This document shows positions 1,219-59,762 of a DNA stretch of 64,000 nucleotides, one piece after another. The stretch lies in assembly GCA_009837205.1 (NCBI GenBank), contig VXTZ01000026.1, positions 7,200-71,199 of the forward strand, read 5' to 3'. The stretch comes from Candidatus Dadabacteria bacterium. Lineage in GTDB: Bacteria; Desulfobacterota_D; UBA1144; Nemesobacterales; Nemesobacteraceae. Positions within the stretch are counted from its first letter, which is position 1, and each line of letters starts with the position of its first letter. The notes below the pieces were generated by a model, which made no database searches, was not told the DNA's origin, and was given only the letters and a program-made list of their open reading frames with translations. Made by a program: the position numbers and the translations under genes.

Positions 1219-3474
1219 ATGGTGGCATCAGAAGAACTCGAAAAAACCCTCTACCGAGCCTACCAGCAGGCAAAAGACCGCAAGCACGAGTTTATCACAC
1301 CGGAGCATATACTCCTTGAACTCACAAGGGACAAAATCGCCGCGGAAGTGCTGATAGAATGCGACGTTGACACCGGGCTTCTCGCAAACGATCTTGAGGA
1401 GCACCTCACTAAAAACATATCCTCGATCGACTCCCCCCATCTCCCCGAACCGACCTACTCCGAAGGAAGCAAGTACATCTTCAGGGTGGCTTCAATGCAC
1501 GCCGAAAGCGCGGAAAAAAAAGAAATATCCGGGGCTAACATACTGGTCGCCATGTTCAGGGTTCCCGAATCGCACGCCGTGTACTTCCTGAACCGCCAGG
1601 GACTTACCCGGTTTGCCGTTATAAAGCAGGTATCCCACGGAAAAGGCGAGGAGGACGAAGAACAGCAGGAAAAACCGGCAACCACCAAGGAGCAACAGAA
1701 GGAAACAAAAAAGGCCGAGACCAAAAACCCCCTTGAGCTTTACTGCACGGACCTGATCGAAAAAGCCCGGAATGGAAGCATCGACCCCCTCATAGGAAGA
1801 GAGAAAGAGGTCCAGAGGATAATCCACATTCTCGGCAAGAGAAAAAAGAACAACCCCGTGCTTGTCGGGGACGCGGGGGTGGGGAAAACGGCGATCGTTG
1901 AAGGAGTGGCTCACCGCGTGGTTTCCGGGGAAGTCCCCGAAGCGATGAAAAACCTCAAGATACATCTTCTAAACATAGGAACCCTCACGGCCGGAACGAA
2001 ATACAGGGGAGACTTCGAGGAAAGGCTTAACGCCGTCATAGACGAAACCAAGAGGGACCCGGACAACGTGCTTTTCATAGACGAGATCCACACGGTCATA
2101 GGAGCCGGAGCAGTTTCCGGCGGAAGCCTTGACGCGTCTAACATGCTAAAGCCCGCCCTTGCCGGAGGAGACATAAAATGCATAGGAACGACGACGCTTA
2201 AGGAATACAGGATCATCTTCGAGAAAGACCACGCGCTTTCAAGAAGATTTCAGAGGGTAACCGTGGATGAGCCGTCGGTTGAGGATTGCGGAAAAATTCT
2301 GTTCGGACTTAAGCGCCATTACGAAAAATACCATAACGTGAAATACTCCCGGGGAGCGATAAGAGCGTGCATAGAACTCTCAGACAGGTACATAATGGAC
2401 AGAAAGCTTCCGGACAAGGCTATCGACATCATGGACGAAGCCGGAGCCGCCGTGAAGCTCCGCAACCCCGACCCCGAGATAACGAGACAGGTAAAAGTGT
2501 CCGACATGGAAAAGCTGGTCGCAAAGATCGCGAAAATCCCCACCAAGTCGGTAAAAGTCGAGGACCGAAACCTCCTCCACGACCTCGGGGACAATCTAAA
2601 AGAATTCATCTACGCCCAGGACGAAGCCATAGACAAACTGGTAAACGCCATACAGATGTCGCGAGCCGGCATAAGCGAGCCGGAAAAGCCCGTGGGCTCT
2701 TTCATGTTCTCAGGACCTACGGGAGTTGGTAAAACGGAGCTTGCGAAAAAGCTCGCAGAGATCCTTGGGGTTGAATTCATACGCTTCGACATGAGCGAAT
2801 ACATGGAAAAACACACCGTCTCCCGCCTCATAGGCTCGCCGCCGGGATATGTCGGCTATGACCAGGGAGGACAGCTTACCGAAGCCATATACAAATCTCC
2901 TCACTGCGTCCTTCTACTCGATGAGATCGAGAAGGCGCACGAGGACATATACAACATACTGCTTCAGGTGATGGACCACGCGACGCTCACGGATTCAAAC
3001 GGAAGGAAGGTGGACTTCCGCCAGGTAATTCTGATTCTGACGACGAACACCGGTTCGAGGGAAAGCATGAACAGGAACGTCGGGTTCGCGAAAAAAGAGT
3101 TTGAGGATAAAAGCCCGGAAGCCATAGACAAGTACTTCTCTCCGGAATTCAGAAACAGGCTGAATGAAATCATCAGGTTTAACCCTCTTGATATAAAAAT
3201 AGTGGAGAGAATAGTCGACAAGATGATCGGAGAGCTTCAGCAGAGGCTCGTCCCGAAAAAAGTAACGATCAGCCTCACGCCGGAAGCGAGGCTTTTTCTC
3301 GCACGCAAGGGCTATGATCCCCAGCTCGGCGCAAGACCCGTGCAGAGAGTAATAAACTCCGAGGTGGCGGAGAAGCTTTCAAAGGAAATTCTCTTCGGCG
3401 AACTCTCAGGCGGCGGCAAGGCGATTGTCTCCCTTGAAGATGAACAGATAGTTCTTCGAGCGGAAACTGACTGA
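1219..3474 (+). CDS. clpA: ATP-dependent Clp protease ATP-binding subunit ClpA
   Basis: Two AAA+ modules with Walker A motifs GDAGVGKT and GPTGVGKT. Has a Clp N-domain, ~750 aa and no ClpB middle domain. ATG at 1219 lies just after the clpS stop. Confidence 0.9.
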   Translation: MVASEELEKTLYRAYQQAKDRKHEFITPEHILLELTRDKIAAEVLIECDVDTGLLANDLEEHLTKNISSIDSPHLPEPTYSEGSKYIFRVASMHAESAEKKEISGANILVAMFRVPESHAVYFLNRQGLTRFAVIKQVSHGKGEEDEEQQEKPATTKEQQKETKKAETKNPLELYCTDLIEKARNGSIDPLIGREKEVQRIIHILGKRKKNNPVLVGDAGVGKTAIVEGVAHRVVSGEVPEAMKNLKIHLLNIGTLTAGTKYRGDFEERLNAVIDETKRDPDNVLFIDEIHTVIGAGAVSGGSLDASNMLKPALAGGDIKCIGTTTLKEYRIIFEKDHALSRRFQRVTVDEPSVEDCGKILFGLKRHYEKYHNVKYSRGAIRACIELSDRYIMDRKLPDKAIDIMDEAGAAVKLRNPDPEITRQVKVSDMEKLVAKIAKIPTKSVKVEDRNLLHDLGDNLKEFIYAQDEAIDKLVNAIQMSRAGISEPEKPVGSFMFSGPTGVGKTELAKKLAEILGVEFIRFDMSEYMEKHTVSRLIGSPPGYVGYDQGGQLTEAIYKSPHCVLLLDEIEKAHEDIYNILLQVMDHATLTDSNGRKVDFRQVILILTTNTGSRESMNRNVGFAKKEFEDKSPEAIDKYFSPEFRNRLNEIIRFNPLDIKIVERIVDKMIGELQQRLVPKKVTISLTPEARLFLARKGYDPQLGARPVQRVINSEVAEKLSKEILFGELSGGGKAIVSLEDEQIVLRAETD

Positions 3475-3520
3475 ACCGCTTCCGGAGCGCACGCCGCGGC
3501 GGAGAGCGGCCAGAAAACCC

Positions 3521-4543
3521 ATGATCTCCATAGGCGAAACTGCTAACAAAATGGTCCAGTACGTGCTTCCCGAACACTCCAACAATCACGGGACCCTGCA
3601 CGGCGGAATACTCATGGACTGGATTATGCTCACTGCCAGCATCACGTCTTTTAAGTTCGCAAACGGGCCTGCGGTCCTGGGAGCCACAGACAGCATAGAT
3701 TTTCTTAACCCAGTAAAGATCGGGGAGATAGTAGTTCTTGAAAGCTGGGTTGAGTACGCGGGAAACTCGTCCATTGAAGTCGCGGTACGCGTGCACTCAG
3801 AAAACGGGGAAACCGAAGAGAAAAAGCTTATAACCCTCTCCTATATGGCCTTCGTCGCCGTGGACGAAAATGTAGGACCGAGAAAAATAGAAGCAAAACT
3901 AAGCGCGTCCAGCACGGTTGAGCGGGAGATCATAACCTTGGCCGAGGAAAGAAAGGTGCGAAGACTTCCGGAGATAAAAAGAAGGAAAAGAAATCTCTCC
4001 AACGTAGCGGATGAGACGGAAAGTTCGAGGCTTATTTTCAATACCACCAAAATGGTGCTCCCGGAAGACGCCTTCTACGGGAAATTCATGTCCGTAGGAA
4101 AGCTCATGAAGTACATTGATGAGAGCGCCGCCATTTTGGCGAAAAGGTTTACCAAAGGTGTTCTGGTTACGGGATCTCTTGACGACCTTTTCTTCTACTC
4201 GCCGCTTAATGTAGGGAATTTGATTGAATTCAAGGCGGGTATCACCCATGTGGGGACAAGGTCGCTTGAATTGGCGATCAAGGTTGATTCGTATGATACC
4301 CAGACCGGAGAGTCATCCCACGCGTGCACGGCGTTTCTCACCTACGTGAAAGTCGACGAAGCCGGAAACCCCGTCCCGGTCCCCGAGTTCACCCCTGAAA
4401 CTCCCTACGAAATCCGCCTCTGGAAAGAAGCGGAAAAAAGGAAGGTAAAGAGAAAAGCGAGGGTGGAGAGAGCCAAAAGTCTTGCCGATGATTACCTAAA
4501 CGAATACAAAAAAGTAAGCTCAAGATCAGAGAAGAAAAGTTAA
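3521..4543 (+). CDS. acyl-CoA thioesterase with two tandem hotdog domains
   Basis: N-terminal NNHGTLHGGILMDWI motif of acyl-CoA hydrolases. A second hotdog-like half follows (LPEDAFYGKFMSVGKLMKYIDESA), then a Lys-rich tail. Confidence 0.7.
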   Translation: MISIGETANKMVQYVLPEHSNNHGTLHGGILMDWIMLTASITSFKFANGPAVLGATDSIDFLNPVKIGEIVVLESWVEYAGNSSIEVAVRVHSENGETEEKKLITLSYMAFVAVDENVGPRKIEAKLSASSTVEREIITLAEERKVRRLPEIKRRKRNLSNVADETESSRLIFNTTKMVLPEDAFYGKFMSVGKLMKYIDESAAILAKRFTKGVLVTGSLDDLFFYSPLNVGNLIEFKAGITHVGTRSLELAIKVDSYDTQTGESSHACTAFLTYVKVDEAGNPVPVPEFTPETPYEIRLWKEAEKRKVKRKARVERAKSLADDYLNEYKKVSSRSEKKS

Positions 4544-19375: not shown

Positions 19376-20308
19376 ATGGGCAGACCCGAATTCGGAGTAA
19401 TGCTGAGACAGCAAAAAATAGATTTTGAAGACATAAAGGCTGCGGCGCAGTTATGCGACTCGACCGGATATGATTCCGTTTGGTTCTACGATCACGTTCT
19501 AGGTCAGGGAATAATCGGTATCGACATCTATGAACCCTGGACTCTAATGTCCGCACTCTCGACAGTAACGGAGAACGTTAAGCTCGGAACGATGGTGCTC
19601 TGCAACCCATTCAGGTACCCTCCCCTGCTCGCCAAGATGGCTTCAACGCTTGACGTGATAAGCAACGGACGCTTGGAATTCGCAATAGGAGCCGGGTGGT
19701 TTGAAGAGGAATTTCGCGCTTACGGATATCCCTTCCCCTCAACGAAAGAAAGGATAGAGATGCTGAGAGAAGCGGTCACGATACTCAAACTGATGTGGGC
19801 GGATGAAACCGCCTCTTTTGTCGGCAAACATTACAAAGTGGAAAACGCGTTTTGCAACCCCAAGCCCGTTCAGCGTCCCAGCATTCCAGTATGCATCGGA
19901 GGTTCCGGAGAAAGATTTCTCTTAAGAGCAGTGGCAGAACTCGCCGATGAATGGAACTGTCCCGCGACAAGCGCAATTGAATTCGACCGCAAGTACTCAA
20001 TACTCCGCAGGCACTGCGAGGAAATCGGGAGAGAGATAGAAGATATAACGATATCTCAGCAGACCGTCTGCGTTCTGGTTGAGGACAGAAAAGATCTCCC
20101 CGAAAAACTCGAAAAGGCCCAGAGACGCTACGGGTTCTTCGGAGACATAGAAAAACTCGGGATCGTGGGAACTCCCGAAGACTGTGTAGGGAAGATCAAC
20201 GCGGATCTGGAGAAGGGAATATCCAAATACACGATTTTCTTCTCTGACGTGATGAATCCCAAGACCATAGAGCTTTTCGCAAAGGAAGTAATACCCGAAT
20301 TCAGATAA
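19376..20308 (+). CDS. LLM-class (luciferase-like) flavin/F420-dependent oxidoreductase
   Basis: TIM-barrel LLM signature (DSVWFYDH...LGTMVL...GRLEFAIGAGW), ~310 aa. Confidence 0.7.
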   Translation: MGRPEFGVMLRQQKIDFEDIKAAAQLCDSTGYDSVWFYDHVLGQGIIGIDIYEPWTLMSALSTVTENVKLGTMVLCNPFRYPPLLAKMASTLDVISNGRLEFAIGAGWFEEEFRAYGYPFPSTKERIEMLREAVTILKLMWADETASFVGKHYKVENAFCNPKPVQRPSIPVCIGGSGERFLLRAVAELADEWNCPATSAIEFDRKYSILRRHCEEIGREIEDITISQQTVCVLVEDRKDLPEKLEKAQRRYGFFGDIEKLGIVGTPEDCVGKINADLEKGISKYTIFFSDVMNPKTIELFAKEVIPEFR

Positions 20309-20365
20309 AGACAATTTATTGCAGTTCTTCATTAATTTGCAAACACTCCTGCGTAATCTGTTTCT

Positions 20366-20392
20366 TTCGAACTTCTGCCATTGAAGTTTGAA
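20366..20392 (+). promoter_or_regulatory. imperfect inverted repeat TTCGAACTTC-N7-GAAGTTTGAA upstream of the metal operon
   Basis: 9 of 10 arm positions are complementary. A TATAAT hexamer lies at 20409..20414 and a TTTGAA -35-like hexamer overlaps the right arm. Confidence 0.3.
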
Positions 20393-20429
20393 AGAAAAGT
20401 GAATAGTTTATAATTAGGACGTGAGCACT

Positions 20430-20771
20430 ATGAAGACAGCATTTCTACTGGCAACATGCATCGCATTGTTTCTTACCGGCGGCATTGCGAACGCCCTCTC
20501 CACATGTCCAATGAACATGGACGAGGCTTCCGCCGAAATGCAGATGGACGCCGACATGGACATGCCTTGCCATGAAACAAAAGATTCGGAAGATCGAAGC
20601 TCCGACCAGTGCGATGGCTGTGATTGCCAGCACTGCGTCCAGATAAACGCGCTGCCGGTTGAAGAGTTAAAGAATCATCATGGGGAAACTGCCGTTGGAA
20701 TTCTTGCCGGTCAGCTCCTGTCCTCCCGCCAGATCGAAACCCTTTTCCGACCTCCAAAACACATCTCCTGA
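20430..20771 (+). CDS. small exported Met/Asp/Cys-rich protein (putative periplasmic metal-binding peptide)
   Basis: Signal peptide MKTAFLLATCIALFLTGGIANA, then MNMDEASAEMQMDADMDMPCHE and CDGCDCQHC. The C-terminus ends FRPPKHIS. First gene of a 4-gene same-strand cluster. Confidence 0.5.
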   Translation: MKTAFLLATCIALFLTGGIANALSTCPMNMDEASAEMQMDADMDMPCHETKDSEDRSSDQCDGCDCQHCVQINALPVEELKNHHGETAVGILAGQLLSSRQIETLFRPPKHIS

Positions 20772-20849
20772 GAAAATTGCGCACACCTGCGCGCTATAAG
20801 CGGCTTCGCTTCGGCGTCGCCAAGCCATAATTGATACTCAGGAGGAAAC

Positions 20850-21497
20850 ATGAAATTAACAGTTTTCACTTTATGTTGCGTGATCCTGATGGGATACGCC
20901 CCTCAGTCACTGTCTCGTCCGGTCTCATATCCGGGCGGCTGGACGGTTATGCAGAAAAACGACAAGAACGCGCATTCTCTTCACGTTCATTATTCGCCGA
21001 CGGCTAAGTATTCAATAGGATACAGGACCGAATACTGGCGCGAGGAGGAGTGGCAGTTCCACGGTGCACAGTTTAACTATCTGGTAAAGCGCCATAATGC
21101 GTCGGACTCACAGGCAAACTTTTATCTTAAAAGCGGTCTTGGCATGGCCTACGGTGATCTTGGAGTGCCCGACGGCGAACCCCAGCCTGCCGTCTTTGCC
21201 GATATCGCCCTTGACTGGGAAACTCGACGGTACTTTACGAGTTATGAGAACCGCGTCTACTACGCCGAAGACATAGCGAAGTTCTTCAGGCAGAAAGCGC
21301 GGGTGGGAATCGCTCCTTATCTCGGGGACTACGGCGATATCCACACTTGGCTCATGCTACAAGTTGACCACATCACGGGAGAGAGAGATAACATCTCGTT
21401 TACACCTTTTGTACGGTTTTTTAAGAACGAGTATCTCGCTGAAGTCGGAATCAGCGACAAAGGTGGGATTTTGTTCAATTTAATAATAAGATTTTAA
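20850..21497 (+). CDS. putative small outer-membrane beta-barrel protein
   Basis: Signal peptide, alternating hydrophobic/polar strand pattern with aromatic girdle residues, and a C-terminal ...LIIRF (terminal Phe). AGGAGG RBS at 20840..20845. Confidence 0.45.
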   Translation: MKLTVFTLCCVILMGYAPQSLSRPVSYPGGWTVMQKNDKNAHSLHVHYSPTAKYSIGYRTEYWREEEWQFHGAQFNYLVKRHNASDSQANFYLKSGLGMAYGDLGVPDGEPQPAVFADIALDWETRRYFTSYENRVYYAEDIAKFFRQKARVGIAPYLGDYGDIHTWLMLQVDHITGERDNISFTPFVRFFKNEYLAEVGISDKGGILFNLIIRF

Positions 21498-21507
21498 GGA
21501 GAAAACT

Positions 21508-21891
21508 ATGAAAATATCAATCACAGCGATTTTTCTTATGACACTTTTTTTCGCGTTCCCAAGCCTTGCGCAACATGGAGAACACGAACATAACCATGAA
21601 GGTCAGGTGGTGGAGCCCTCTGCCGTTTCAAACGACATGGGAAACGCCGCCTGTGAAGACACCGTCAATATCAAGGTCAGCGGACTTGTATGCGATTTCT
21701 GCGCCCGTTCCCTGGAAAAAGTCTTCCTAAAACGCGGCGATGTTGCCGGGATCAAGGTTGATCTTGGCAAAGGCTCCGTAGTGGTTGCCATGAAACCCGG
21801 ATTGACCGTTGACGATGCAACGCTTACGAAGCTTATCACGGACTCCGGGTACAACGTGAGTGCCATTCAGAGGGGGTGCGAACATGGATAA
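21508..21891 (+). CDS. exported heavy-metal-associated (HMA) domain protein, MerP/CopZ-like, with His-rich N-terminus
   Basis: Signal peptide ...PSLA/QH, then QHGEHEHNHEG. The beta-alpha-beta-beta-alpha-beta HMA core has GLVCDFC in the metal loop, and the C-terminus is RGCEHG. Confidence 0.7.
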   Translation: MKISITAIFLMTLFFAFPSLAQHGEHEHNHEGQVVEPSAVSNDMGNAACEDTVNIKVSGLVCDFCARSLEKVFLKRGDVAGIKVDLGKGSVVVAMKPGLTVDDATLTKLITDSGYNVSAIQRGCEHG

Positions 21892-22279
21892 CACAAATTC
21901 CGGGTATGGAGTGAAGCAAACGCTTCTCCCCTCGCTCAGTCTGCTTACGTCCGCTGGAACACTGGTGTGCTGCGCCCTTCCCGCATTATTAGTGACGATC
22001 GGCGCCGGCGCCGTTCTGGCGGGAATCGTAGGAACCGCACCCTGGCTGATTGCGTTGTCAGAATACAAAGTCTGGACGTTCGGAATCTCAGGCGCAATGC
22101 TTCTAATCGCCGGATTCGCGCTCTGGAATTCCAGAAACGCTCCCTGCCCGATTGACCCGGCGAAGGCAATGGCATGTGCCAGATTACGAAAGACAAGCAA
22201 CTGGATATACCTGTTATCCGTGCTTCTATGGTGCGTGGGCTTTTTCTTCGCTTTTCTCGCCGTGAGAGTCTTTTACTGA
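21884..22279 (+). CDS. MerT/MerC-like membrane transporter (CC motif in TM1)
   Basis: TM1 GTLVCCALPALLVTIGAG matches the Mer-transporter CC-x2-P pattern. A second Cys pair follows at APCP...MACA, with 3-4 predicted TM segments. ATG at 21884 overlaps the HMA gene stop by 8 nt. Confidence 0.55.
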   Translation: MDNTNSGYGVKQTLLPSLSLLTSAGTLVCCALPALLVTIGAGAVLAGIVGTAPWLIALSEYKVWTFGISGAMLLIAGFALWNSRNAPCPIDPAKAMACARLRKTSNWIYLLSVLLWCVGFFFAFLAVRVFY

Positions 22280-22308
22280 TTTCTTTCGGATAGTCAGATT
22301 AGGGAAAT

Positions 22309-22324
22309 GCCGGGGAAACCCGGC
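22309..22324. terminator. GC hairpin GCCGGG-GAAA-CCCGGC between convergent genes
   Basis: Perfect 6-bp stem with a GAAA tetraloop, located between the + strand metal operon and the - strand GldC-like gene. The flanking T-run is weak. Confidence 0.35.
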
Positions 22325-22359
22325 GTTCCCCTAGCCTGCAGGGTACCAAAGGGTGTTGG

Positions 22360-22710
22360 TCAGGAATCTTTCTGACCTCCGAAAGACTCAAGGACCATCT
22401 CGGCAAACTCGCCCGCGAATTCTCTCATTCTGTTCGATATCTGCTTCTCGGAGGTAGCCCTTTCATATGTGTCGGCCATTTTCATCATCGTATAGTAAAA
22501 ATGATAGTTCATCTCCCCCACTTCCATTTTCTTTGTCCAAAGATCTATTACAAGAGATTCCTTCTTCTCGGCATCCCACATGGAGAGAAAAGCCGCCTCG
22601 CAGCGCTTCTCTCCCGGTTCCTCAGATTGGGAAGCCTCCCAGAAAAGCCCCTCGGGAACATTGTCGTCCCCTAACACTACCTTAAGCTTGATTTCGGCGT
22701 CTTTGGACAT
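22360..22710 (-). CDS. GldC-family protein (gliding-motility-associated GldC-like)
   Basis: From memory of Flavobacterium GldC: the blocks EIKLKVVLGDDNVPE, FLSMWDAEKKESLVIDLWTKKMEVGEM and MADTYERAT line up. ATG at 22710 has GGAG upstream. Confidence 0.55.
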   Translation of the reverse strand: MSKDAEIKLKVVLGDDNVPEGLFWEASQSEEPGEKRCEAAFLSMWDAEKKESLVIDLWTKKMEVGEMNYHFYYTMMKMADTYERATSEKQISNRMREFAGEFAEMVLESFGGQKDS

Positions 22711-22842
22711 GGAAAACTCCTTAGAAGATTTTTTATGAAAAACGGGGAAATCCCGCACGGAAATTATATCCGGTTTCAAGCAAAGCGTCTTAAGGCATAT
22801 TCTGCATCGCCCATTTAACGCGCAATGAAAGGAAAGAAGGAA

Positions 22843-22993: not shown

Positions 22994-24172
22994 TTAATGT
23001 CCTCCTCCTTTTGACTTGCCGTCAAAGTACGGGTCACCGAAAGGTATTACCGGGAACCTGTTTATAAACAGAAGAAAAGTCGCCACAAATCCCGCAAGAA
23101 AACCGAGAGTGATCAGGAAGTGATTGATACTGAAAACCAACTCGTTGGTAAGCGAAGGGATAACCAGCAGGAATTTGTCCATCCAGAGACCCGAGAAAGA
23201 AACCGTAGCGATAAAGACGACTATGGGCGTAACTATCTTGTGCGTGCGGGGCAACAGGGAAACAAAAGGAAATATGAAGCAGCAGGTGAGGATAGCCCAC
23301 GCAAGCGAGCGGAAAGGCTCATCCACCACCCTTTTTATCACAAACCCGGTCTCTTCGGGCATGTTCGCGTACCAGATCGTAAGAAGCTGGGAGAACATGA
23401 GGTAAACCCAGAAAAGAGAAAAGCCTTGGAGTATCTTTCCCATGTCCCAGTAATGATTAACGGAAAGGTAGTCGTCAAGTCCCAGGTAACGCTTGAGGGG
23501 GACCGAAAGTATTATCGTCGCTCCTATGGCCGCTATGAGGCTCCCAATAAAATAGTAGGGTCCGAAAAGCGTGCTGAACCAGTGAGGATCAAGCGACATC
23601 ATGAAATCCCAGGCGAAAAGGGAAAAAACAAGAGCGTAGACCCCGATTACGGCAGGAGCCAACTTCTTTAACCTGACGATCCTCTCCTTGCCGTTTAGGT
23701 CCTGTTCAATTGAGGTTTTGAGGTAGAAGTAGTTCAGAACGAGAAGGATCGAGAAACCTATCACGTTTCTCGCCATTACGAAGTTCATATTAAGCCATAT
23801 GTCCTTGGGACTGTGGTAGTGATGATGCGCATAAGGAAGGACAAATTCCTGTCCGATGAAAAGAACCAGCAGGAGCACTAAGGAGACTAAAGTGAAGCTC
23901 GCAAAACCCTCGCTTATGCGAAGAAGCCCCCTGCCCCACCTGGCGTTGGTTATCCTCAGTATGCAGGAGAACACAAGCCCGCCCTGGGCAACCCCCGTCC
24001 AGAAAAGGAAATTCACCAGGAAAAGCTGCCAGACCTCCTCGGCCCTCTCCCCCCTGGCGTTAATTACAAAAGCCACTACACCCACAGCCGCCAGAGCGAG
24101 GAAAACCTTGAATACCCAGCCGGGTATCTGGTTTCTTTTAGCGAGTATCTCTTGGCTTATGGACTGATCCAT
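22994..24172 (-). CDS. actF: Alternative Complex III subunit ActF (NrfD-like membrane subunit)
   Basis: Polytopic NrfD/PsrC-like membrane protein, the second such subunit in the operon, placed after actE as in canonical ACIII. Confidence 0.75.
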   Translation of the reverse strand: MDQSISQEILAKRNQIPGWVFKVFLALAAVGVVAFVINARGERAEEVWQLFLVNFLFWTGVAQGGLVFSCILRITNARWGRGLLRISEGFASFTLVSLVLLLVLFIGQEFVLPYAHHHYHSPKDIWLNMNFVMARNVIGFSILLVLNYFYLKTSIEQDLNGKERIVRLKKLAPAVIGVYALVFSLFAWDFMMSLDPHWFSTLFGPYYFIGSLIAAIGATIILSVPLKRYLGLDDYLSVNHYWDMGKILQGFSLFWVYLMFSQLLTIWYANMPEETGFVIKRVVDEPFRSLAWAILTCCFIFPFVSLLPRTHKIVTPIVVFIATVSFSGLWMDKFLLVIPSLTNELVFSINHFLITLGFLAGFVATFLLFINRFPVIPFGDPYFDGKSKGGGH

Positions 24173-24176
24173 CGTT

Positions 24177-24761
24177 CTACTGACTCTCCTTGACAGAGCC
24201 CGGGTTCTGAAGCTTCCTCAAGTAATTGACCACGTGCCATGCGTCCTGCTCCGATATGTTCTCGCTGTAAGAAGGCATCATCACCTTGCCCCCGTAACGT
24301 ATATAGGCATAGATGTAACCGTCGGTTCTCTGCGCCACGGTCGGCGTGGTAAGGTTAACCGGGTAAAAACCGAGCCCTTTCTTTATTATGATTCCGTCTC
24401 CCAATCCCCCGGGGCCGTGACACACGGCGCATTGCTCTTTGTAAACTTTCGCTCCCCTGGCTACCGACTCACCGCTTCCGGGAACCGGTCCCTTTTTTAT
24501 CTGCTCGACCTTGCCCCTGTCTTCAAGCTTTGTTTGCTTCCCGTCGGTGGAAATCGAATTGCGCGGAAAAAGCACGGGCTCTTCGTAGGGCTGAATCGAG
24601 TCCTGAGACCACATGTCCCACGACCACGGAAGCGAGTGGGCAGAGGAAATGGAAAGCGCGACCGCAAAAGCAACGGCGGTACATACTTTTAATCCCCCGA
24701 GGAAGTTAATATCCCAAACTCCCCCTAGAACTGTCCGAAAAAACTTTTTATGCCTCATCAA
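24177..24761 (-). CDS. actE: Alternative Complex III subunit ActE (monoheme cytochrome c)
   Basis: Single CAVCHG heme-binding site and an N-terminal membrane anchor/signal. Confidence 0.75.
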   Translation of the reverse strand: MMRHKKFFRTVLGGVWDINFLGGLKVCTAVAFAVALSISSAHSLPWSWDMWSQDSIQPYEEPVLFPRNSISTDGKQTKLEDRGKVEQIKKGPVPGSGESVARGAKVYKEQCAVCHGPGGLGDGIIIKKGLGFYPVNLTTPTVAQRTDGYIYAYIRYGGKVMMPSYSENISEQDAWHVVNYLRKLQNPGSVKESQ

Positions 24762-25254
24762 ACTTGATTTCTTCAGCTCCCGTAGAATTTAATATCGCTT
24801 CAACCGCACCTATATTTTCCTTCTCACATATAACGGCGACCCCGAACTTGTCATCCGAAAAACGCTCGTCATAAAGCCTCACCGGGGTTCTCTGTCTTAT
24901 AAGGGAATTCACTATCAGCCCCAAAAAGGTTGAAAGCGCGCCGAAAAGCACCGTAAGCTCAAAAACGATGACCATGTAGGGAATTATCGAAACTATGGGC
25001 TTGGCGCTCACCGCTATCGGCCAGGAGCTTGAAGTAAGAACCGTAAAACCGATTCCGCAGGTCGCCCCCAGCAGACCTCCGAAGAGGGTAAAAAACCGCA
25101 CGGGGCTCTCAGGCAGATCAACCGCCGCCTCAATTTCATGGTCCGGAAACGGGGAGAACACCCTCATGTTGCGGTAACCCGCTTCCTTGAGCTTGCCAAT
25201 GGCTTCAAGAACCGAATCCTGATACGAGTAAATTCCGATTACGCCCTGATCCAT
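24748..25254 (-). CDS. actD: Alternative Complex III subunit ActD (DUF3341-type)
   Basis: ~170 aa with a soluble N-terminal domain and two TM helices. Position between actC and actE matches ACIII. Confidence 0.75.
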   Translation of the reverse strand: MDQGVIGIYSYQDSVLEAIGKLKEAGYRNMRVFSPFPDHEIEAAVDLPESPVRFFTLFGGLLGATCGIGFTVLTSSSWPIAVSAKPIVSIIPYMVIVFELTVLFGALSTFLGLIVNSLIRQRTPVRLYDERFSDDKFGVAVICEKENIGAVEAILNSTGAEEIKFDEA

Positions 25255-25260
25255 TTCCTG

Positions 25261-26592
25261 CTAACCTCCCTTCTTCGGCACCGGAAGTATCTCCTTCATC
25301 TCCGCTATGGAAACTGCCGGAAGAGTTTTCACAAACAGTAAGAAGAACATGAAGAACCACGCGAAACTTCCGATCGTTATGCCGGCCTCGACAAACGATA
25401 TCTTGTATATGCCCCACGCGCCGGGCTCAAAATCTCTTGAAAGCGATATCACGATGATATTGAACCGCTCGAACCACATCCCTACGTTTATCAGTATGGA
25501 AATGGCGAAAAGCGCCTTTATGTTTTTTCTAACCTTCTCCCACCAAAACGCTATCGGAACAACGCAGTTGCACACCACCATCGTCCAGTAGAAAAACGCG
25601 TACTCTCCAGTCATCCTGTACACAAACTGTCCCCATTCATAAGGACTTCCACTGTACCACGCCATGAAAAGTTCCGCCGCGTACGCGTAGGTGACTATGC
25701 AGGAGGTCAGAATTATGAGCTTCGCCATGCCGTCGTAGTTATCAAGCGTTATGTAGTCCTCGAGGTGGAAAATCTTCCTTATAGGGATGGTAAGCGTGAT
25801 AACCATCGCCAGTCCCGAGAAAATGGCTCCCGCAACGAAGTACGGGGGGAATATGGTTGTGTGCCATCCGGGAACGTTACCCATCGCGAAGTCCCAGGAC
25901 ACGACGCTGTGAACTGAGAGAACAAGCGGCGTGGCGAGAGCCGCGAAATAAAGATACGCCCTCGTGTAGTGAAGCCACTCCTTGTTTGAACCCTTCCATC
26001 CGAAGGAGAGAATCGAGTATATGATCTTTCTCGGAACTTCCTTCACCTTGTCCCTTATCGCCGCTATATCGGGAATCATTCCGACCACGAAAAACACCGA
26101 ACTCACCGTAAGATAAGTACCCACCGCGAACACGTCCCACACAAGCGGGGACTTGAAGTTTATCCACAGCTCCCTTGAATTCGGATATGGTATGAGCCAC
26201 AGGAAGTTCCATGGTCTTCCGAGGTGGATTATGGGGAAAAGTCCCGCCGTGAGAACCGCGAAGACCGTCATGGCCTCGGCGATTCTGTATATGGACATCC
26301 TGAACCTTGCGCGGAACAGATAAAGTATGGCCGAGATAAGGGTTCCCGAGTGCGCTATTCCAACCCAGAAAACAAAATCGGTTATGTAGACTCCCCAGAA
26401 AACCGGGTGACGATAGCCGGCAACTCCAAGTCCCGTAGCCACCTGATAGAAAAAGCACGTGACGCCGAGTCCCACGAGCGCCACCGTGGGAAGAAAAAGC
26501 GCCCACCATTTCGCAGACGGCTTGTCGACCATCCTGACTACATCTTCAGTTATTCTCGCGTAAGTTAAAGGTGTCTGCTGCGTCTGGCTCAT
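25261..26592 (-). CDS. actC: Alternative Complex III subunit ActC (NrfD-like quinol-interacting membrane subunit)
   Basis: ~440-aa polytopic NrfD/PsrC-family protein immediately after actB, with a 1-nt overlap. Confidence 0.85.
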   Translation of the reverse strand: MSQTQQTPLTYARITEDVVRMVDKPSAKWWALFLPTVALVGLGVTCFFYQVATGLGVAGYRHPVFWGVYITDFVFWVGIAHSGTLISAILYLFRARFRMSIYRIAEAMTVFAVLTAGLFPIIHLGRPWNFLWLIPYPNSRELWINFKSPLVWDVFAVGTYLTVSSVFFVVGMIPDIAAIRDKVKEVPRKIIYSILSFGWKGSNKEWLHYTRAYLYFAALATPLVLSVHSVVSWDFAMGNVPGWHTTIFPPYFVAGAIFSGLAMVITLTIPIRKIFHLEDYITLDNYDGMAKLIILTSCIVTYAYAAELFMAWYSGSPYEWGQFVYRMTGEYAFFYWTMVVCNCVVPIAFWWEKVRKNIKALFAISILINVGMWFERFNIIVISLSRDFEPGAWGIYKISFVEAGITIGSFAWFFMFFLLFVKTLPAVSIAEMKEILPVPKKGG

Positions 26593-29531
26593 TACACTCT
26601 TTCCTGTTTGACTTTCTTAAGATAGGTAATCGCGGGCTTGGTGTTTACCACTTCGAGAACCTTGTAGCCCCTATCGTCCTCGGACAGCACCGACGCCCTG
26701 CTCTTGTCGTCAAGCAGGTTGCCGAACACTATCGCATCGCTCGGGCAAGCCTGCTCGCAGGCCGTGAGAACCTCTCTGTCGCGAAGAAGCCTTCCTTCAT
26801 CCTTGGCGAGGTCCTTCCCGTAACTTATTCTCTGAACGCAGAAAGTGCATTTTTCCATGATTCCCTTCGACCTTACCGTCACGTCGGGATTAAGCTGCCA
26901 GTTAAGAGGCTCGGGGAACTTGTAGGTATACCAGTTGAACCTTCTTACCTTGTAGGTGCAGTTGTTCGCGCAGTACCTGGTGCCCACGCAGCGGTTGTAT
27001 ATCATGCCGTTTAGGCCCTCGTGGTTGTGGTAAGTCGCGAAAACCGGACACACGGGCTCGCAAGGGGCGTTTCCGCACTGCTGGCAGAGCATGGGCAGAA
27101 ATCTCACGTCAAGGCTTCCGTCGCTGTTTTTCTCAAAGAATCTCTCTATGCGAATCCAGTTCATCTCGCGGCGTTTCGCCATCTGCTTCTTCCCGACAAA
27201 GGGAATGTTGTTCTCTGCGGAACACGCGGTCACGCAGGCCCCGCAGCCGGTGCACTTGTTAAGGTCTATGGCCATTCCCCATCTGTATTTCGAGTATTCT
27301 ATTTCCGGGTAGAAGTCAGGGTGCTCCGAGTGGTGCGCTCCATGGGCGCCGTTATGATGGCCAATCTGGTCAAGAGCGATGGTCTTGGCGACGTGCCTGT
27401 CTCCCTGGCTCTTTGTGTACTGTGTCCTTACAAGCAGGTCTCTTTTCCTAAGGGATGAAACGTTCGCCTTGGTTGAAAGCAGCGAGGGTCCACCTGAAAG
27501 CGCATCGGTAGCCGCCGGCAGCAGAGCAAAGGGATTCACCCCTCTTCCCTTCGCGTACCTTCCGTAGGAAGTGTGTCCCTGCCCAATTGGAATGGCAATT
27601 GTATCCGGCCTTATTCCCTCATAGACGAAAACCTGTACCTCGAAACTTCCCCCGGGGGTATCAACCTTCACGTAAGAGCCATCCTCAAGGCCCATTTTGG
27701 CCGCGACGGCGGGATTTATCTCAAGCCACGAATCCCACACCGAAGTGGTAAGGGCATCGGGAAGTTCCTGAAGCCAAGGCTTGTTCGCCCCTCTTCCGTC
27801 AAGAAACCTGTGGGACGGATAAGCAATCAAGTGGAAATCTCCTTCTCCCCGGAACTGCGGATCGCTGAAAGAAACGGAACTTACCCCGGATGAAAGAGCG
27901 ACATTGACAGGAGCGGGGGTGGTCGTCACCGAACCTTTTACAAGAAGTTTTTTCCAGAATTTCTCGAAGCTTGTTCCGGGAGAGAGAGCCTCGGCCCTTT
28001 TCTTCCAGGCGCTTCTTAGATAGTCATAGTATTTTTTCTCTGCGAACGTGTTTTTAAGCGCCTCGACATTCTTTGAAACAGATATCAGCGTATCGCCCGC
28101 GGATTTGGTATTGAAAACTGGTCTCATGACGGGCTGAGTGATGCCGGTCACGCTCTTTTTCGGGCTGTAGTCTCCCCAGCTCTCAAAGGAAGTACTTTCG
28201 GGAAGTACGAGATGCGCCTTCTCGGAAGTCTCGTCAAGGAATGAAGAGAGGCTTACGACAAACGGCACTTTTTCAAGAGCCTCGGCAACTTTCAGTTCTC
28301 CCGGAAGCGTGAAAACCGGGTTCACGTTATGAACGATAAGAACTTCCACCTTGCCCGACCTCATTTCCTCCACCAGCTTCTTCATGTCACTGAAGCTGTT
28401 TGCATCCGAGATTGAAAGAGAATCGGAGAAATCAACCGTCTTGCCGATGTTTCCGGCAAGGTAGTTAAGTATGTTCACGGCAACCATGGTTTCGGTCGCG
28501 TTTGATCCCGTGTTGGCTGCTCCGCCCCCTATTGCCAGGCTTTTTGAAGACGCGAAGTCCCGGGCGATTTTCTCTATGGTGTCCGTGGACACGTCGGTGA
28601 GCGCTGCAACTTTTTTGGGCGTGTAGCCCGAAACCATTCTGGCTATCGGCCCCGGGGCAAACTTGTTAAGACCCTTTGAGATCATAACGTTGGCAATCCC
28701 GAGAGCAAGGTACTGCTCCGTGCCCGGTTTCGCCGCAACCCACGTATCGGCGTTTGAAGCGGTCATTCCGGAGCGCGGCTCTATATGAACGACCTGACCG
28801 GTTTTCCCGTGATCTATATCTCTTAGCTTTGAATATCCTATGGAGTTTGAAACCGCAGAAAGCCACGTTTCAAGGTAATCAGCCCCGAATGAGAGAAGGT
28901 AGTCCGCTTTGTCTATCCTGTAAGAGGGGATTTCGTCTCTTCCGAAAACAATTGAATTCGCCTTTCTGATGGGTTCATGGGAGAAAGTCTCGTAAACGTA
29001 ATGCTTTCCTCCAAGAGGCCTCAGGAACTCCGCCACGAACTTCGAGTAAGTTCCCGACACGTTGTTGCTCAGATAGACGATCTTCCCCGAGCCGAGAGAA
29101 TTTAATTTTTCTGTGAGTATCCCTTCACCCCTCTCCCAGCCTATGGCCTCGAGTCTCTGGGTTTCAGTGTTGCGTACAAGCGGGGAGCGGACCCTGTCGG
29201 GGTTGTAGAGACCCTGTAGGGAAGCCTGGCCCATGGCGCACGTCTTTCCCCTGTTTATAGGGCTCTCGGGATTGCCTTCAACCTTGATGGCCCGTCCCTC
29301 GCGGTTTTTCACCACGAGACCGCAGCCCGACGAGCACTCCCTGCAGGTCGTCGCGTAGAACTTGGGTACTCCGGGAATAATATTTTCAGGAGGAATAACG
29401 TAAGGGATTATCTGCTCCACCGGCTCCGAACAACTTCCGGCAACAGCTGCCGTACCGCCGGCTACCCCGATCACTTTCAGGAAATCCCTTCTCTTCATGC
29501 CGTTTTTTCCTTTATTTTCTTTCCGAGACAT
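26592..29531 (-). CDS. actB: Alternative Complex III subunit ActB (molybdopterin-oxidoreductase-like domain fused to 4Fe-4S ferredoxin domain), Tat signal
   Basis: Twin-arginine motif KRRDFLKV and an N-terminal CRECSSGC...C cluster motif. The C-terminal third has several CxxCxxCxxxC ferredoxin motifs. ATG at 29531 has GGAGGGG upstream. Confidence 0.85.
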   Translation of the reverse strand: MSRKENKGKNGMKRRDFLKVIGVAGGTAAVAGSCSEPVEQIIPYVIPPENIIPGVPKFYATTCRECSSGCGLVVKNREGRAIKVEGNPESPINRGKTCAMGQASLQGLYNPDRVRSPLVRNTETQRLEAIGWERGEGILTEKLNSLGSGKIVYLSNNVSGTYSKFVAEFLRPLGGKHYVYETFSHEPIRKANSIVFGRDEIPSYRIDKADYLLSFGADYLETWLSAVSNSIGYSKLRDIDHGKTGQVVHIEPRSGMTASNADTWVAAKPGTEQYLALGIANVMISKGLNKFAPGPIARMVSGYTPKKVAALTDVSTDTIEKIARDFASSKSLAIGGGAANTGSNATETMVAVNILNYLAGNIGKTVDFSDSLSISDANSFSDMKKLVEEMRSGKVEVLIVHNVNPVFTLPGELKVAEALEKVPFVVSLSSFLDETSEKAHLVLPESTSFESWGDYSPKKSVTGITQPVMRPVFNTKSAGDTLISVSKNVEALKNTFAEKKYYDYLRSAWKKRAEALSPGTSFEKFWKKLLVKGSVTTTPAPVNVALSSGVSSVSFSDPQFRGEGDFHLIAYPSHRFLDGRGANKPWLQELPDALTTSVWDSWLEINPAVAAKMGLEDGSYVKVDTPGGSFEVQVFVYEGIRPDTIAIPIGQGHTSYGRYAKGRGVNPFALLPAATDALSGGPSLLSTKANVSSLRKRDLLVRTQYTKSQGDRHVAKTIALDQIGHHNGAHGAHHSEHPDFYPEIEYSKYRWGMAIDLNKCTGCGACVTACSAENNIPFVGKKQMAKRREMNWIRIERFFEKNSDGSLDVRFLPMLCQQCGNAPCEPVCPVFATYHNHEGLNGMIYNRCVGTRYCANNCTYKVRRFNWYTYKFPEPLNWQLNPDVTVRSKGIMEKCTFCVQRISYGKDLAKDEGRLLRDREVLTACEQACPSDAIVFGNLLDDKSRASVLSEDDRGYKVLEVVNTKPAITYLKKVKQERV

Positions 29532-29545
29532 ATATCCCCTCCGGC

Positions 29546-30148
29546 CTAGTAATGGCAGGTCAGACAATCCTTAAGTTCGGTCTTATGTTCCTCGTTGTCG
29601 GCGTTTTCTTCGTGACACGATATGCAGAATCCCATCGTCAGGTCCTCTGCCTTGTGCACCACGTCCATCTTCTCAACTTCCCCGTGACAGGTGCTGCACT
29701 CAAATCCGCGCTTTATATGCCTTTTATGGTTAAAACGTACAAACTCCGGCATTCCCGCGGAGGTCGTGCCGTACATTCCGGTAACCTTTACCCACGGTAT
29801 CGGTTCCTGCCTGCGCCAATAACCCTTTACCTTGTTTATTTCCTCTCTTATGTTGATCGTCTGCCCCCCTTGCGTTGTGTACTCAACGTCCCTTCCGGCA
29901 ACATAAGAATGACATCCCATGCACTTCTGCACCGAGGGGATACCGGGATGGGGGGAAACTTCCGTGTAGCTGTGGCAGGTCTGACACTGTATCTGGTTGT
30001 CATCAGCGTGTATCTTGTGGCTGAAAAGAACCGGCTGCGCGGGGCCCTTGTCGCTACTCTCGGCAGTTTCCGCATAAAGGTAAAGACCCGCCGTCACAAG
30101 TAAAACGGTCATAGCGATACGCAAGAATCTGTGTGTATCTCTCTTCAT
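29546..30148 (-). CDS. actA: Alternative Complex III subunit ActA (pentaheme cytochrome c)
   Basis: Five CxxCH sites (CQTCH, CMGCH, CSTCH, CISCH, CLTCH) and an N-terminal membrane anchor. Confidence 0.85.
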   Translation of the reverse strand: MKRDTHRFLRIAMTVLLVTAGLYLYAETAESSDKGPAQPVLFSHKIHADDNQIQCQTCHSYTEVSPHPGIPSVQKCMGCHSYVAGRDVEYTTQGGQTINIREEINKVKGYWRRQEPIPWVKVTGMYGTTSAGMPEFVRFNHKRHIKRGFECSTCHGEVEKMDVVHKAEDLTMGFCISCHEENADNEEHKTELKDCLTCHY

Positions 30149-56282: not shown

Positions 56283-56389
56283 TTTCTTTTTAGAACAGGG
56301 ACTTTATACTACATTCAGGCAGTGGTTTTTCAAGAGACAAAACAAACGAAGGAGGCGGCCAAAACCCTCCTCCGCAAGTGCTTACGCTA

Positions 56390-57481
56390 ATGGAATCCGC
56401 AAAGAAAACTCCGCTTTATGAAAGACACGCAGCCCAGGGAGCCGTATTCGGCGAGACGGGCGGATTTTTTCTTCCAAAAAGCTACGGTGACCCGGAAGGG
56501 GAAGCAAAAGCCGCAAGAGAATCTGTGGGCGTTATAGATATTTCAAGCAGGGGAAAACTCATGCTATCGGGAGCCGACCACATAAAATTCCTGCAGGGGG
56601 TGCTCACAAACGACGTAAAGGAGAAAATCCCCGGGACAGGGGTCTACGCGACAATACTCACCCCCAAGGGGAAAATGGTTTCAGACATGAGGGTCTTTAA
56701 AAACGAAGGCTCTGTCTACATGGATGCTGAACCCGGCACGGGCGGGAACCTAGCGGAGTTTCTCCGCAAACTCAGGCTTTCATACAAAGCCGAGGTGCTT
56801 GACGTTACTGAAGATTGCTGCGTTTTTCACGTCTGCGGTCCCGGCTGCGGGGAATTAATCGAAAAGCGCCTCGGCGTCAACGTTAAACAGATGAAGGAAT
56901 ATGATCACCGGGCTTGCGGAGAGGCAACCTTAATGAAACTCAACAGAACGGGAGAAACCGGTTTTGACGTTCTTTTTGAAAACCGCGGGGCTAAGAAAAT
57001 CTGGGAACTTCTTCTTGAAAATCCACCGGTCCCCGGACTTTGCGGACAAGAGGCTCTCGAAACCCTGAGAATAGAAGCCGGAATCCCCGTTTACGGAAAG
57101 GACATGGACATCTCCACCATACCTATTGAAGCCGGCATATGGGATGCTCTTGACTTTGAAAAGGGTTGCTACGTGGGACAGGAAGTAATAGCAAGGATAA
57201 AGTGGAGAGGAAGAGTAAACTGGCACCTCGCGTATTTCGAGGCACAGCAAGACGGCAGCGCACTACCAGGGAACACGCTTTGGGTTAAGGAGAAAAAAGT
57301 GGGGAGAATAACCTCTTCAACATACTCTCCCACTCTGGGGAAAAACATCTCCATCGGCTATATAAGAAGGGAATTCCGCGATTTCCAGGGAGAAATATCC
57401 GTTGGCGGAGAAGACCTCGCCGACAAAACGCCGAACACCGTAAAAACAACGGGAAAGCCTTTTTATAGCCGCTTTGAATAA
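56390..57481 (+). CDS. aminomethyltransferase (GcvT) family folate-binding protein
   Basis: TPLYERH...GVIDISSRGKL...EALETLRIEAGIP pattern. No gcvH or gcvP adjacent. The start (ATG 56390 versus GTG 56378) is uncertain. Confidence 0.75.
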   Translation: MESAKKTPLYERHAAQGAVFGETGGFFLPKSYGDPEGEAKAARESVGVIDISSRGKLMLSGADHIKFLQGVLTNDVKEKIPGTGVYATILTPKGKMVSDMRVFKNEGSVYMDAEPGTGGNLAEFLRKLRLSYKAEVLDVTEDCCVFHVCGPGCGELIEKRLGVNVKQMKEYDHRACGEATLMKLNRTGETGFDVLFENRGAKKIWELLLENPPVPGLCGQEALETLRIEAGIPVYGKDMDISTIPIEAGIWDALDFEKGCYVGQEVIARIKWRGRVNWHLAYFEAQQDGSALPGNTLWVKEKKVGRITSSTYSPTLGKNISIGYIRREFRDFQGEISVGGEDLADKTPNTVKTTGKPFYSRFE

Positions 57482-57492
57482 TTTAAAAAAAA

Positions 57493-57501
57493 TGCTATAA
57501 T
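57493..57501 (+). promoter_or_regulatory. extended -10 element TGCTATAAT upstream of mreB
   Basis: Read directly from the sequence. It would give a ~100-nt mreB leader. Confidence 0.35.
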
Positions 57502-57608
57502 TTAGAGGTTAACTATTTGGCCGTAGACTCGTCTGGTTTACAATTACATAAGGCGAGTATTTTCGGGTTTGATTATAGTTTAACTTAAAGAAGAGGTAGT
57601 TGTAAATA

Positions 57609-58649: not shown

Positions 58650-58928
58650 TTATAGAAAACCCGTGATATCAGGCAGATTCCGTAATGTCTCGATTATTGA
58701 GTCGCAAGTGCCGAGTTCGGCCTTGATTTGTGTCTGCTCTCACAATCAGCCTTCAAGACGGATTGCCCCTTGCAACCTGAATTGTTTTGTGTTATAGTGG
58801 TTTGGCAACGGTTTTTTGTTTTAGTATCCTGTAACCCCTTGCAATGGCTGTCATTATAACGTGGACGTGATTTTTTCCGCCACTTGTGAGAATCGAAATT
58901 AAGTATCTCCGACCGGAAGGGAAACTTA

Positions 58929-59735: not shown

Positions 59736-59762
59736 CTCTCCCCAACTGGACCCAGTTGGAAT

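Follow-up and report, generated by a model that had tools for sequence, protein, structure and literature searches.

What is the purpose of an operon that pairs metal-relay genes of the mercury-resistance type with a candidate outer-membrane barrel, in DNA in which neither merA nor merR is found? This question is raised by four genes, referred to here as g1 to g4, in a 64,000-nucleotide stretch of Candidatus Dadabacteria bacterium DNA (contig VXTZ01000026.1). This whole stretch is called the window, and its nearest public genomes are metagenome-assembled genomes of Candidatus Dadabacteria (approx. 2 Mb, with the NCBI label Thermodesulfobacteriota). An earlier interpretation made from the letters alone, the sequence-only reading, saw in these genes Mer import hardware repurposed for the uptake of a nutrient metal. 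The analysis described here points to another role: the operon is probably an envelope Cu(I)-handling system that is induced by copper excess, i.e., a Mer/CopCD-like relay that serves copper stress and not scavenging. The four genes are as follows:

20430-20771, + strand: g1, 113 aa from an ATG start, with an in-frame GTG at 20421
20850-21497, + strand: g2, 215 aa
21508-21891, + strand: g3, 127 aa
21884-22279, + strand: g4, 131 aa counted from its ATG

These same-strand open reading frames (ORFs; 20430-22279) are separated by gaps of 78 nt and 10 nt and then overlap by 8 nt. The ORF list thus gives the same spacing as the sequence-only reading, whose start at 20366 lies in the untranslated leader, approx. 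60 nt 5' of g1. All motifs that had been quoted for the four products were also found (MNMDEASAEMQMDADMDMPCHE, CDGCDCQHC, QHGEHEHNHEG, GLVCDFC, RGCEHG, VCCALPALLVTIGAG, and APCP...MACA). Rfam and consensus scans across 20200-22450 returned nothing useful. An antisense ORF over g3/g4 (21727-22200, - strand, 157 aa) was considered and rejected as a gene; its recurrence in 37 related loci does no more than mirror the conserved g3/g4 coding on the + strand.

The reported absence of merA and merR from the 64-kb window held when it was searched by tblastn with Tn21 MerR, MerT, MerP, MerC, MerA, MerD, and MerE, as the sole matches were to HMA domains on g3 (MerP, E=2.5e-4; MerA, E=0.002). To place the operon among its relatives, one genome per GTDB species was scanned, which yielded at least 481 loci with a g4 relative, of which the best 80 were kept. 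The gene set does recur across genomes: in all 78 loci that have upstream DNA, g4 is directly preceded, on its own strand, by homologues of g2 and g3, and a small ORF of the g1 type is found 5' of g2 in 58 of 77 loci (the window included). The cassette is carried by Dadabacteria, Rickettsiales-like and Micavibrio-like Alphaproteobacteria, several Gammaproteobacteria, a few Betaproteobacteria, and Bdellovibrionales. Clustering and a pooled Pfam scan of 110 flanking ORFs from the 80 loci revealed no fifth conserved gene outside Dadabacteria and no recurrent reductase, P-type ATPase, oxidase, merA, or merR beside the cassette. Because no other neighbour is conserved outside Dadabacteria, g2-g3-g4 is a self-contained unit, and its adjacency to genes for Alternative Complex III (ACIII) is specific to Dadabacteria. 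On the strength of this neighbour analysis, a hidden substitute for MerA and a fixed tie to respiratory genes were rejected.

The signal to which the cassette responds can be read from those loci that lack g1. There are 19 loci without a g1 with a Pro-Pro tail, seven of which carry a CsoR/RicR-like gene and two a CueR-like gene of the MerR family, placed as follows:

L049, L057, L058, L063, and L065: CsoR/RicR-like gene, same strand, directly downstream of g4
L066 and L078: CsoR/RicR-like gene, divergent, upstream
L050 and L071: CueR-like gene, divergent, upstream

A g1 is missing from every one of these nine loci with a neighbouring regulator gene (Fisher p = 6e-7). The CueR-like proteins score 140-141 bits with the CueR model, compared with 81-90 for MerR and 74 for ZntR, and, as judged by eye, they keep the CPGNxxPxCP two-Cys loop and the Ser at the position of CueR that selects +1 ions. 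The CsoR-like proteins score 85 bits with RicR and 36 with RcnR and FrmR. The DNA next to these genes is organised to match. In the CsoR loci, a palindrome (ATACCCC-N4-GGGTAT) overlaps the promoter (TTGACA...TATAAT) at a distance of 19-120 nt from g2, on its upstream side, and is present twice in L058 and in L065; palindromes that strong occur nowhere else in the 856 kb of loci examined. In the CueR loci, TTGACC is followed by a 19-bp spacer with the dyad CCTTAACGTTAGGG and then by TATAxT, which is the layout of a MerR-type promoter. When cytoplasmic Cu(I) rises, CsoR leaves its DNA and CueR activates transcription. A further locus, L061 (Micavibrio sp. UBA5703), carries on one strand a small exported Cys ORF, copA (multicopper oxidase), copB, g2, g3, and g4, such that g3 and g4 occupy the places held by copC and copD in copABCD operons.

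Given the CsoR/CueR-like regulators, their operators on the g2 promoter, and the copA-copB context of L061, the cassette is induced by Cu(I). It follows that g1 holds the place of a regulator, that the cassette responds to Cu(I) and perhaps to Ag(I) as well, and that excess and not shortage switches it on. The choice of Cu(I) as the likeliest metal, already made from the letters, is therefore strengthened, since the adjacent CsoR/RicR- and CueR-like regulators score as copper sensors.

How might g1 take over from such regulators? Its product has a hydrophobic N-terminus ending in ...GIANA (a signal peptide as judged by eye), a Cys directly after the cleavage site, the motifs MPCH and CDGCDCQHC, and a C-terminal RPPKHIS-stop, and it is rich in Cys, His, and Met. 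An alignment of 42 family members has a mean identity of only 19%, with H48, P108, and P109 invariant and C26, C47, and C66 nearly so; the relatives keep the signal peptide, the Cys that follows cleavage, (M)PCH, a CxC(xx)C cluster, and a Pro-Pro pair near the C-terminus. This pair lies 4 residues ahead of the stop in 28 of the 42 loci, and all four Pro codons occur at both of its positions, which indicates selection on the peptide. Within this context, the obvious comparison is CutF, a nascent exported protein of Rhodobacter capsulatus; copper bound to it prolongs stalling at its Pro-rich end and melts the stem-loop that hides the ribosome-binding site (RBS) of cutO (PMC9973294; bioRxiv 10.1101/2025.02.05.636593). 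[quoted passage not shown]

The DNA between g1 and g2 also has the stem-loop over the RBS of the downstream gene that is a trait of CutF-like leaders, as predicted from two arms:

20765-20772, + strand: 5' arm of the stem, CUCCUGAG, which holds the g1 stop codon TGA at 20769-20771
20837-20844, + strand: 3' arm of the stem, CUCAGGAG, which overlaps AGGAGG, the Shine-Dalgarno (SD) sequence of g2

The predicted structure (20765-20844) has a fold energy of -31.9 kcal/mol (z = -2.35). In most of the 58 loci, the 3' end of g1 is predicted to pair with the SD of g2, through arm sequences that differ by lineage, for example, AUUUCCUAA/UUAGGAAAU and CCUCGGCUGACG/CGUCAACCGAAGG. Where the C-terminal codons of g1 diverge, the pairing sequence moves to directly after the stop codon, as in the variant GCUAACUCCU/AGGAGUUAC, in which it lies just 3' of the stop. 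When compared with random windows drawn from the same loci, the duplex between the g1 end and the SD is within the best 5% in 27 of 40 loci from outside Dadabacteria (p = 5e-26). Thus, g1 is most likely a translational copper sensor and leader peptide of the CutF/CopL type, although its sensing of Cu is argued by analogy. The sequence-only reading had instead made this Met/Cys-rich peptide the fourth part of a transport system; the Pro-Pro near its C-terminus, the pairing of its 3' end with the g2 RBS, and the CsoR/CueR-like genes of the nine loci that lack it speak against that role.

Two observations on this region may be added. Between the stem arms, at 20779-20830, there are two short GC-rich hairpins (GCGCAC...GCGC and GGC..GCG....CGC..GCC) that are kept in all Dadabacteria loci and may act as a spacer, as added stability, or as a protein site. 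In addition, small exported Cys-rich ORFs of a second type, whose products end in GPPxDWP...QTQPS.LLTTQRLR at the C-terminus, precede copA in L061 (2186-2590) and g2 in L067 (approx. 3367-3792), and L054 and L064 have similar ones. This type is not recognised by NCBIfam and may represent another family of leader-peptide regulators.

The three genes under this control would form the relay proper. The g3 product appears to be an exported periplasmic metallochaperone of the HMA fold, in agreement with the earlier assignment: it passes the threshold of Pfam HMA (PF00403; 25.4 bits vs. a cut-off of 24.8, residues 55-115), and its CDFC loop is invariant. Across 76 loci, VnGLVCDFCAR and the C-terminal tDSGYNV are essentially invariant, and the His-rich N-terminal stretch and RGC tail are frequent, not universal. 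Among NCBIfam models, CopZ gives 24-31 bits and MerP (TIGR02052) 19 bits against a cut-off of 92.55; all are below their cut-offs, and g3 scores nearer CopZ than MerP.

The kinship of g4 is more distant. Neither Pfam (E<=1) nor NCBIfam gives a hit for g4 itself, which therefore stands outside the curated MerT family (PF02411), and a search of its profile against PDB sequences gave chance-level hits only. However, profile-profile alignment with six annotated plasmid MerT proteins (hhalign) gave a probability of 87.4% and E=3.6e-6 over 93 columns, with CC placed on CC. When relatives of g4 are scanned individually, no Pfam family recurs except MerT, which is hit by 7 of 18 close relatives (best E=0.0015) and, among divergent relatives, by 14 of 34 (best E=1.2e-5). 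These hits, below threshold as they are, and the hhalign match indicate that g4 is a remote relative of MerT, probably a divergent branch of the MerT superfamily and not a member of the curated model. The family is large, with at least 1488 homologues, for which no Pfam domain is recorded, and with 802 clusters at 50% identity. C29 and C30 in the first transmembrane helix (TM1) and C98 are invariant, and C88 is nearly so. Three helices are modelled, with C88 and C98 on a positively charged TM2-TM3 loop, which is the topology of MerT; the AlphaFold model has low confidence (pLDDT 63), and Foldseek found no meaningful match for it. The MerT-like character first ascribed to g4 is thus upheld by the profile match, by the MerT hits among its divergent relatives, and by both Cys pairs.

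Relatives of g4 also occur on plasmids. In L088 (Vibrio diabolicus plasmid NZ_CP069194.1, 4215-6350), g4 has a divergent relative within a MerT-like/HMA fusion, for which the annotation reads "heavy metal-associated domain-containing protein"; merA is absent, and the fusion has as neighbours a MerR-type (helix-turn-helix) regulator, an unnamed 243-aa protein, and a "GDCCVxC domain-containing (seleno)protein". On Variovorax megaplasmids, a g4-like gene overlaps an unnamed 104-aa gene.

For g2, the evidence is chiefly structural. The AlphaFold model, built with 26 homologues, is confident (pLDDT 86.8, pTM 0.76) and consists of a signal helix followed by 12 beta-strands, and the chain ends in ...IIRF. 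The best Foldseek matches are the 12-stranded porins KdgM and NanC (4fqe, 4pr7, 2wjr), the beta-domains of intimin/invasin, autotransporter barrels, and FapF; against 4fqe, E=3.7e-4 and TM 0.54/0.66. The barrel that had been suspected from the strands of this exported 215-aa protein is thus supported as a 12-stranded outer-membrane barrel. Sequence searches place it nowhere: there is no Pfam (E<=1) or NCBIfam match, the best E of its profile against PDB sequences is 0.061, with unrelated proteins at chance level, and all of its homologues (at least 1076) are unnamed. Its relatives are absent from the plasmid collection that was searched. Since there is no Pfam hit at E<=1, g2 does not belong to CopB/PcoB (PF05275), a family matched by the genuine CopB proteins of L061 and L027 (E=1e-73 and 7e-87, respectively). 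Conserved residues on the polar face (H45, H47, H165, W167, M169, D122, E124, D173, E198, R151, and R189) would point into the lumen, as judged from strand alternation on the alignment and not from model coordinates.

Taken in sequence, these parts suggest how the operon could work. The g1 peptide would be exported during its translation, and its Cys/His motifs would sense periplasmic Cu. Copper on g1 would prolong the pausing of the ribosome at Pro-Pro, four codons ahead of the stop, and the paused ribosome would cover the anti-SD arm formed by the last g1 codons, allowing g2, and with it g3 and g4, to be translated. By means of CDFC, g3 would take periplasmic Cu(I) and hand it by ligand exchange to the TM1 Cys pair of g4, from which it would move to the Cys pair of the cytoplasmic loop, as Hg(II) does in MerP/MerT. 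Transfer across the inner membrane would run from the periplasm to the cytoplasm and would thereby move reactive Cu(I) to a buffered compartment, the site of action of CopZ-type chaperones, P1B-ATPases, and CsoR/CueR sensors, and g2 would provide the passage of copper across the outer membrane. Inward is the likeliest direction at the inner membrane, as it is favoured by the homology to MerT and by a comparable import branch in cop operons. In the latter, copper is proposed to pass from CopC to CopD, and in Pseudomonas syringae the production of these two proteins on their own leads to copper hypersensitivity and copper accumulation. A bolder version, less likely than not, can be put forward tentatively: a widespread and so far unrecognised copper system that follows the logic of mercury handling but has no reductase. 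On a rise of periplasmic or cytoplasmic Cu(I), the cell would build an energy-independent relay, composed of a new Met/His-lined barrel, a CDFC HMA protein, and a new MerT-like family, and would defend itself by deliberately moving Cu(I) inward to the cytoplasm; in most lineages, control would lie with a new clade of nascent-peptide sensors in which the region of the stop codon masks the RBS of the following gene.

The same hardware could also serve nutrition, i.e., take Cu(I) up into the cytoplasm for respiratory cuproenzymes, with g1 capturing the metal or acting as a repressor in the manner of CruR. Inward movement of metal is what the homology to MerT and MerP suggests, the ACIII genes adjoin the operon in Dadabacteria, and the window contains an ORF that resembles SCO1. 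Copper is routed via the cytoplasm for oxidase assembly in the Rhodobacter CcoA pathway. CruR, for its part, represses Cu uptake when Cu is present (PMC9426467). However, CsoR operators or a CueR-type promoter are found on the cassette in nine loci, both sensors turn their genes on at high Cu(I), and in L061 the cassette comes after copA-copB. The SD-masking layout fits CutF, in which Cu induces, and not CruR; moreover, the ACIII adjacency is restricted to Dadabacteria, and there is no heme-copper oxidase gene in the window. Uptake for oxidase biogenesis, as first proposed for this operon, is thus disfavoured by the regulation and must be considered quite unlikely, even if the opposite sign is possible for the Dadabacteria lineage (compare CruR). 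The idea of a repurposed Mer import system survives in part, since the Mer-like hardware with its own barrel stands and import may hold, whereas the nutritional role gives way to a stress context.

A serious rival, though an improbable one, turns the relay outward: periplasmic Cu(I), delivered by a P1B-ATPase or by g4, would be passed to g3 and leave through g2, providing a cheap alternative to Cus-type RND (resistance-nodulation-division) export. Copper-induced regulation is as expected for such a route, transfer from periplasm to cytoplasm alone would hardly call for an outer-membrane barrel, the lumen of g2 would carry conserved His, Met, and Trp, and the PcoB barrel of Caulobacter is required for Cu efflux (PMC12509749). 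Nevertheless, the operon has no energy-coupling component, the gradient under external Cu stress is inward, the homology between g4 and MerT suggests inward transfer, and E. coli PcoB conducts Cu inward in vitro (PMC9210255). It is far less probable that the operon belongs to another thiophilic metal (Hg, Ag, Cd, or Zn), as a mer remnant or a Zn/Cd module. Such an origin would account for the similarity to MerT and MerP, for the Vibrio plasmid fusion by a MerR-type regulator and a GDCCVxC protein, and for the Asp of CDFC, the His-rich g3 N-termini, and the ZnuA/ZnuB/Zur genes that stand beside the cassette in two loci. Against this, merA and merR are absent from the window and do not recur in the 80 loci, the adjacent MerR-family regulators score as CueR, and the CsoR-like proteins match the copper sensor RicR. 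Ag(I) is possibly a co-substrate.

A copper-stress relay under the control of g1, the interpretation preferred here, has several points against it. Some concern its regulation. The sign of regulation in lineages that bear g1, including that of the window, is carried over from other lineages and is to that extent provisional, and a related upstream ORF, CruR (DUF2946), works with the opposite sign, as Cu represses a TonB-dependent Cu uptake system through it (PMC9426467); CruR, however, combines a long spacer with Rho termination, whereas the layout at g1 is SD masking, as in CutF. The stem on its own is no proof of metal sensing, since ordinary translational coupling also masks SDs. The score of g1 with NCBIfam CopL_fam (NF033807) is below threshold (E=5.7e-4; 20.5 bits, cut-off 40), Pfam DUF2946 (PF11162) matches 3 of the 42 g1 relatives (best E=0.0012) with g1 under the curated threshold, and the profile search with g1 returned unannotated proteins only, with no bridge to annotated DUF2946/CopL proteins. 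Membership of g1 in DUF2946/CopL was dropped on these grounds, and it would rather form a new clade that acts like CutF outside these families, with a weak resemblance to them. Finally, four loci (L022, L038, L044, and L055) carry the cassette with no recognisable g1, CsoR-like or CueR-like gene, or operator. Other points concern the cargo and the route. The Asp of CDFC and the often His-rich N-terminus of g3 would suit divalent metals too, and there are the Znu/Zur neighbours mentioned above. As L061 has copB in addition to g2, the latter is not a simple substitute for CopB. Import of Cu(I) into the cytoplasm under copper stress would also have no obvious benefit; to our knowledge, the benefit has never been fully explained for CopCD either.

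In L022, which is from a Dadabacteria-like genome, the luciferase-like gene that flanks the cassette on its 5' side abuts g2 directly, as though g1 had been lost. In the window, the surroundings of the operon and the region of the SCO1-like ORF are as follows:

19376-20308, + strand: luciferase-like (LLM-class) oxidoreductase gene, upstream flank, kept only within Dadabacteria
22360-22779, - strand: GldC-like gene, downstream flank, kept only within Dadabacteria
22994-30148, - strand: ACIII (act) cluster, which looks complete and adjoins the cassette only in Dadabacteria
29546-30148, - strand: act gene for a multihaem cytochrome c7-like protein
26592-29567, - strand: act gene for the molybdopterin/iron-sulphur subunit
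25261-26592, - strand: act gene, NrfD-like
24748-25254, - strand: act gene for ActD
24177-24761, - strand: act gene for a mono-haem cytochrome c
22994-24172, - strand: act gene for a 392-aa membrane protein without a Pfam match
56378-63109: gcvT, mreB, mreC, PBP2, and rodA
63280-64000, + strand: SCO1/SenC-type ORF (CPRLC...AHPSG), truncated at 239 aa, running past the end of the window

The SCO1 gene that the sequence-only reading placed at 63280 is borne out insofar as an ORF like SCO1/SenC starts there, although it has no Pfam match at E<=1e-5. It comes after the mreB-mreC-PBP2-rodA cluster and not after oxidase genes, and the heme-copper oxidase genes presumed to lie nearby are absent from the window, 56378-63109 being taken up by gcvT and that cluster.

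In five unrelated loci, the window not among them, the cassette is adjoined by a gene for a membrane protein of the MauE/DoxX type with the conserved motif KCAC(V/L)G:

L017:6418-7146, L027:6671-7411, L062:6448-7176, and L065:6677-7180, + strand: MauE/DoxX-type genes just past g4 or csoR
L066:3877-4800, - strand: MauE/DoxX-type gene

According to Pfam, this protein is fused to a glutaredoxin domain in L027 and L066; in L065 it is shorter, at 167 aa. Its function may be to hold the cassette's Cys ligands in the reduced state. In L027, DUF305, the glutaredoxin-MauE fusion, and copB all lie within 3 kb of g4.

How does the operon compare with known systems? It shares with the MerT/MerP modules of Tn21 and Tn501 a gene for a periplasmic CxxC HMA protein beside a gene for a protein with three transmembrane helices, a CC pair in TM1, and a Cys pair in a loop, and, like mer operons, it would be a module induced by the metal that it handles. 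It differs in that MerA, MerR, and MerD are missing, in that the regulators indicate Cu(I) and not Hg(II), in the order of genes (HMA gene before MerT-like gene, the reverse of merT-merP), and in the added barrel and leader sensor. The second Cys pair of g4 is C-x9-C, whereas that of MerT is C-x5-C, and g4 and its close relatives remain below the Pfam threshold. With CutF-cutO of Rhodobacter capsulatus, g1 has in common its small size, Sec export, Cys motifs, Pro-rich C-terminus, short spacer, and RBS-hiding stem, and, as with other CutF-like leaders, it heads an operon for metal homeostasis. However, its motif is xPPK-x-x-S-stop instead of PPP, it belongs to a separate sequence family, the 5' arm of its stem is the end of the g1 ORF including the stop codon, and the barrel/HMA/MerT-like class of downstream genes is not named in the main text of PMC9973294. 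CopB-CopC-CopD and PcoB-PcoC-PcoD offer the same set of roles (a barrel, a periplasmic chaperone, and a putative inner-membrane importer, expressed under copper stress) without kinship in sequence: g2 lacks PF05275, g3 has an HMA and not a CopC fold, and g4 is a Cys-ligand protein with three transmembrane helices and not CopD. Reports on PcoB, the outer-membrane barrel of Cu-induced operons, are themselves split between import (PMC9210255) and efflux (PMC12509749). The KdgM/NanC porins share the fold of g2, being similar in size and strand number, but their identity to g2 is 7-9% and their substrates are acidic sugars, whereas the lumen of g2 would be lined by His, Met, and Trp. In short, the operon resembles Mer and CopBCD in its working and cutFOG in its regulation, and it falls outside the curated MerT, MerP, DUF2946/CopL, and CopB families. 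The impression that this four-part architecture had not been described is in line with the literature searched (MerT-like/MerP-like copper; MerT with CueR and CsoR), in which no account of it was found.

The entry and exit of copper across the Gram-negative envelope are poorly understood, and the roles of CopB/PcoB and CopC/CopD are debated. The cassette, which is compact and present in at least 481 species-level genomes, brings to this field three families (g1, g2, and g4) that have no curated Pfam or NCBIfam model. Moreover, three copper sensors (a leader peptide, CsoR, and CueR) are interchangeable in its control according to lineage, making its regulation directly testable. If the proposed interpretation is true, the nascent-peptide metal sensors of the CutF/CruR class would be joined by g1 as a new clade, one whose RNA mechanism is clear, transporters that use a Cys relay of the MerT type would be seen to serve metals other than mercury, and the outer membrane would gain a candidate copper channel. 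The carriers include Dadabacteria and many uncultured marine or host-associated Alpha- and Gammaproteobacteria, for which copper tolerance is ecologically relevant.

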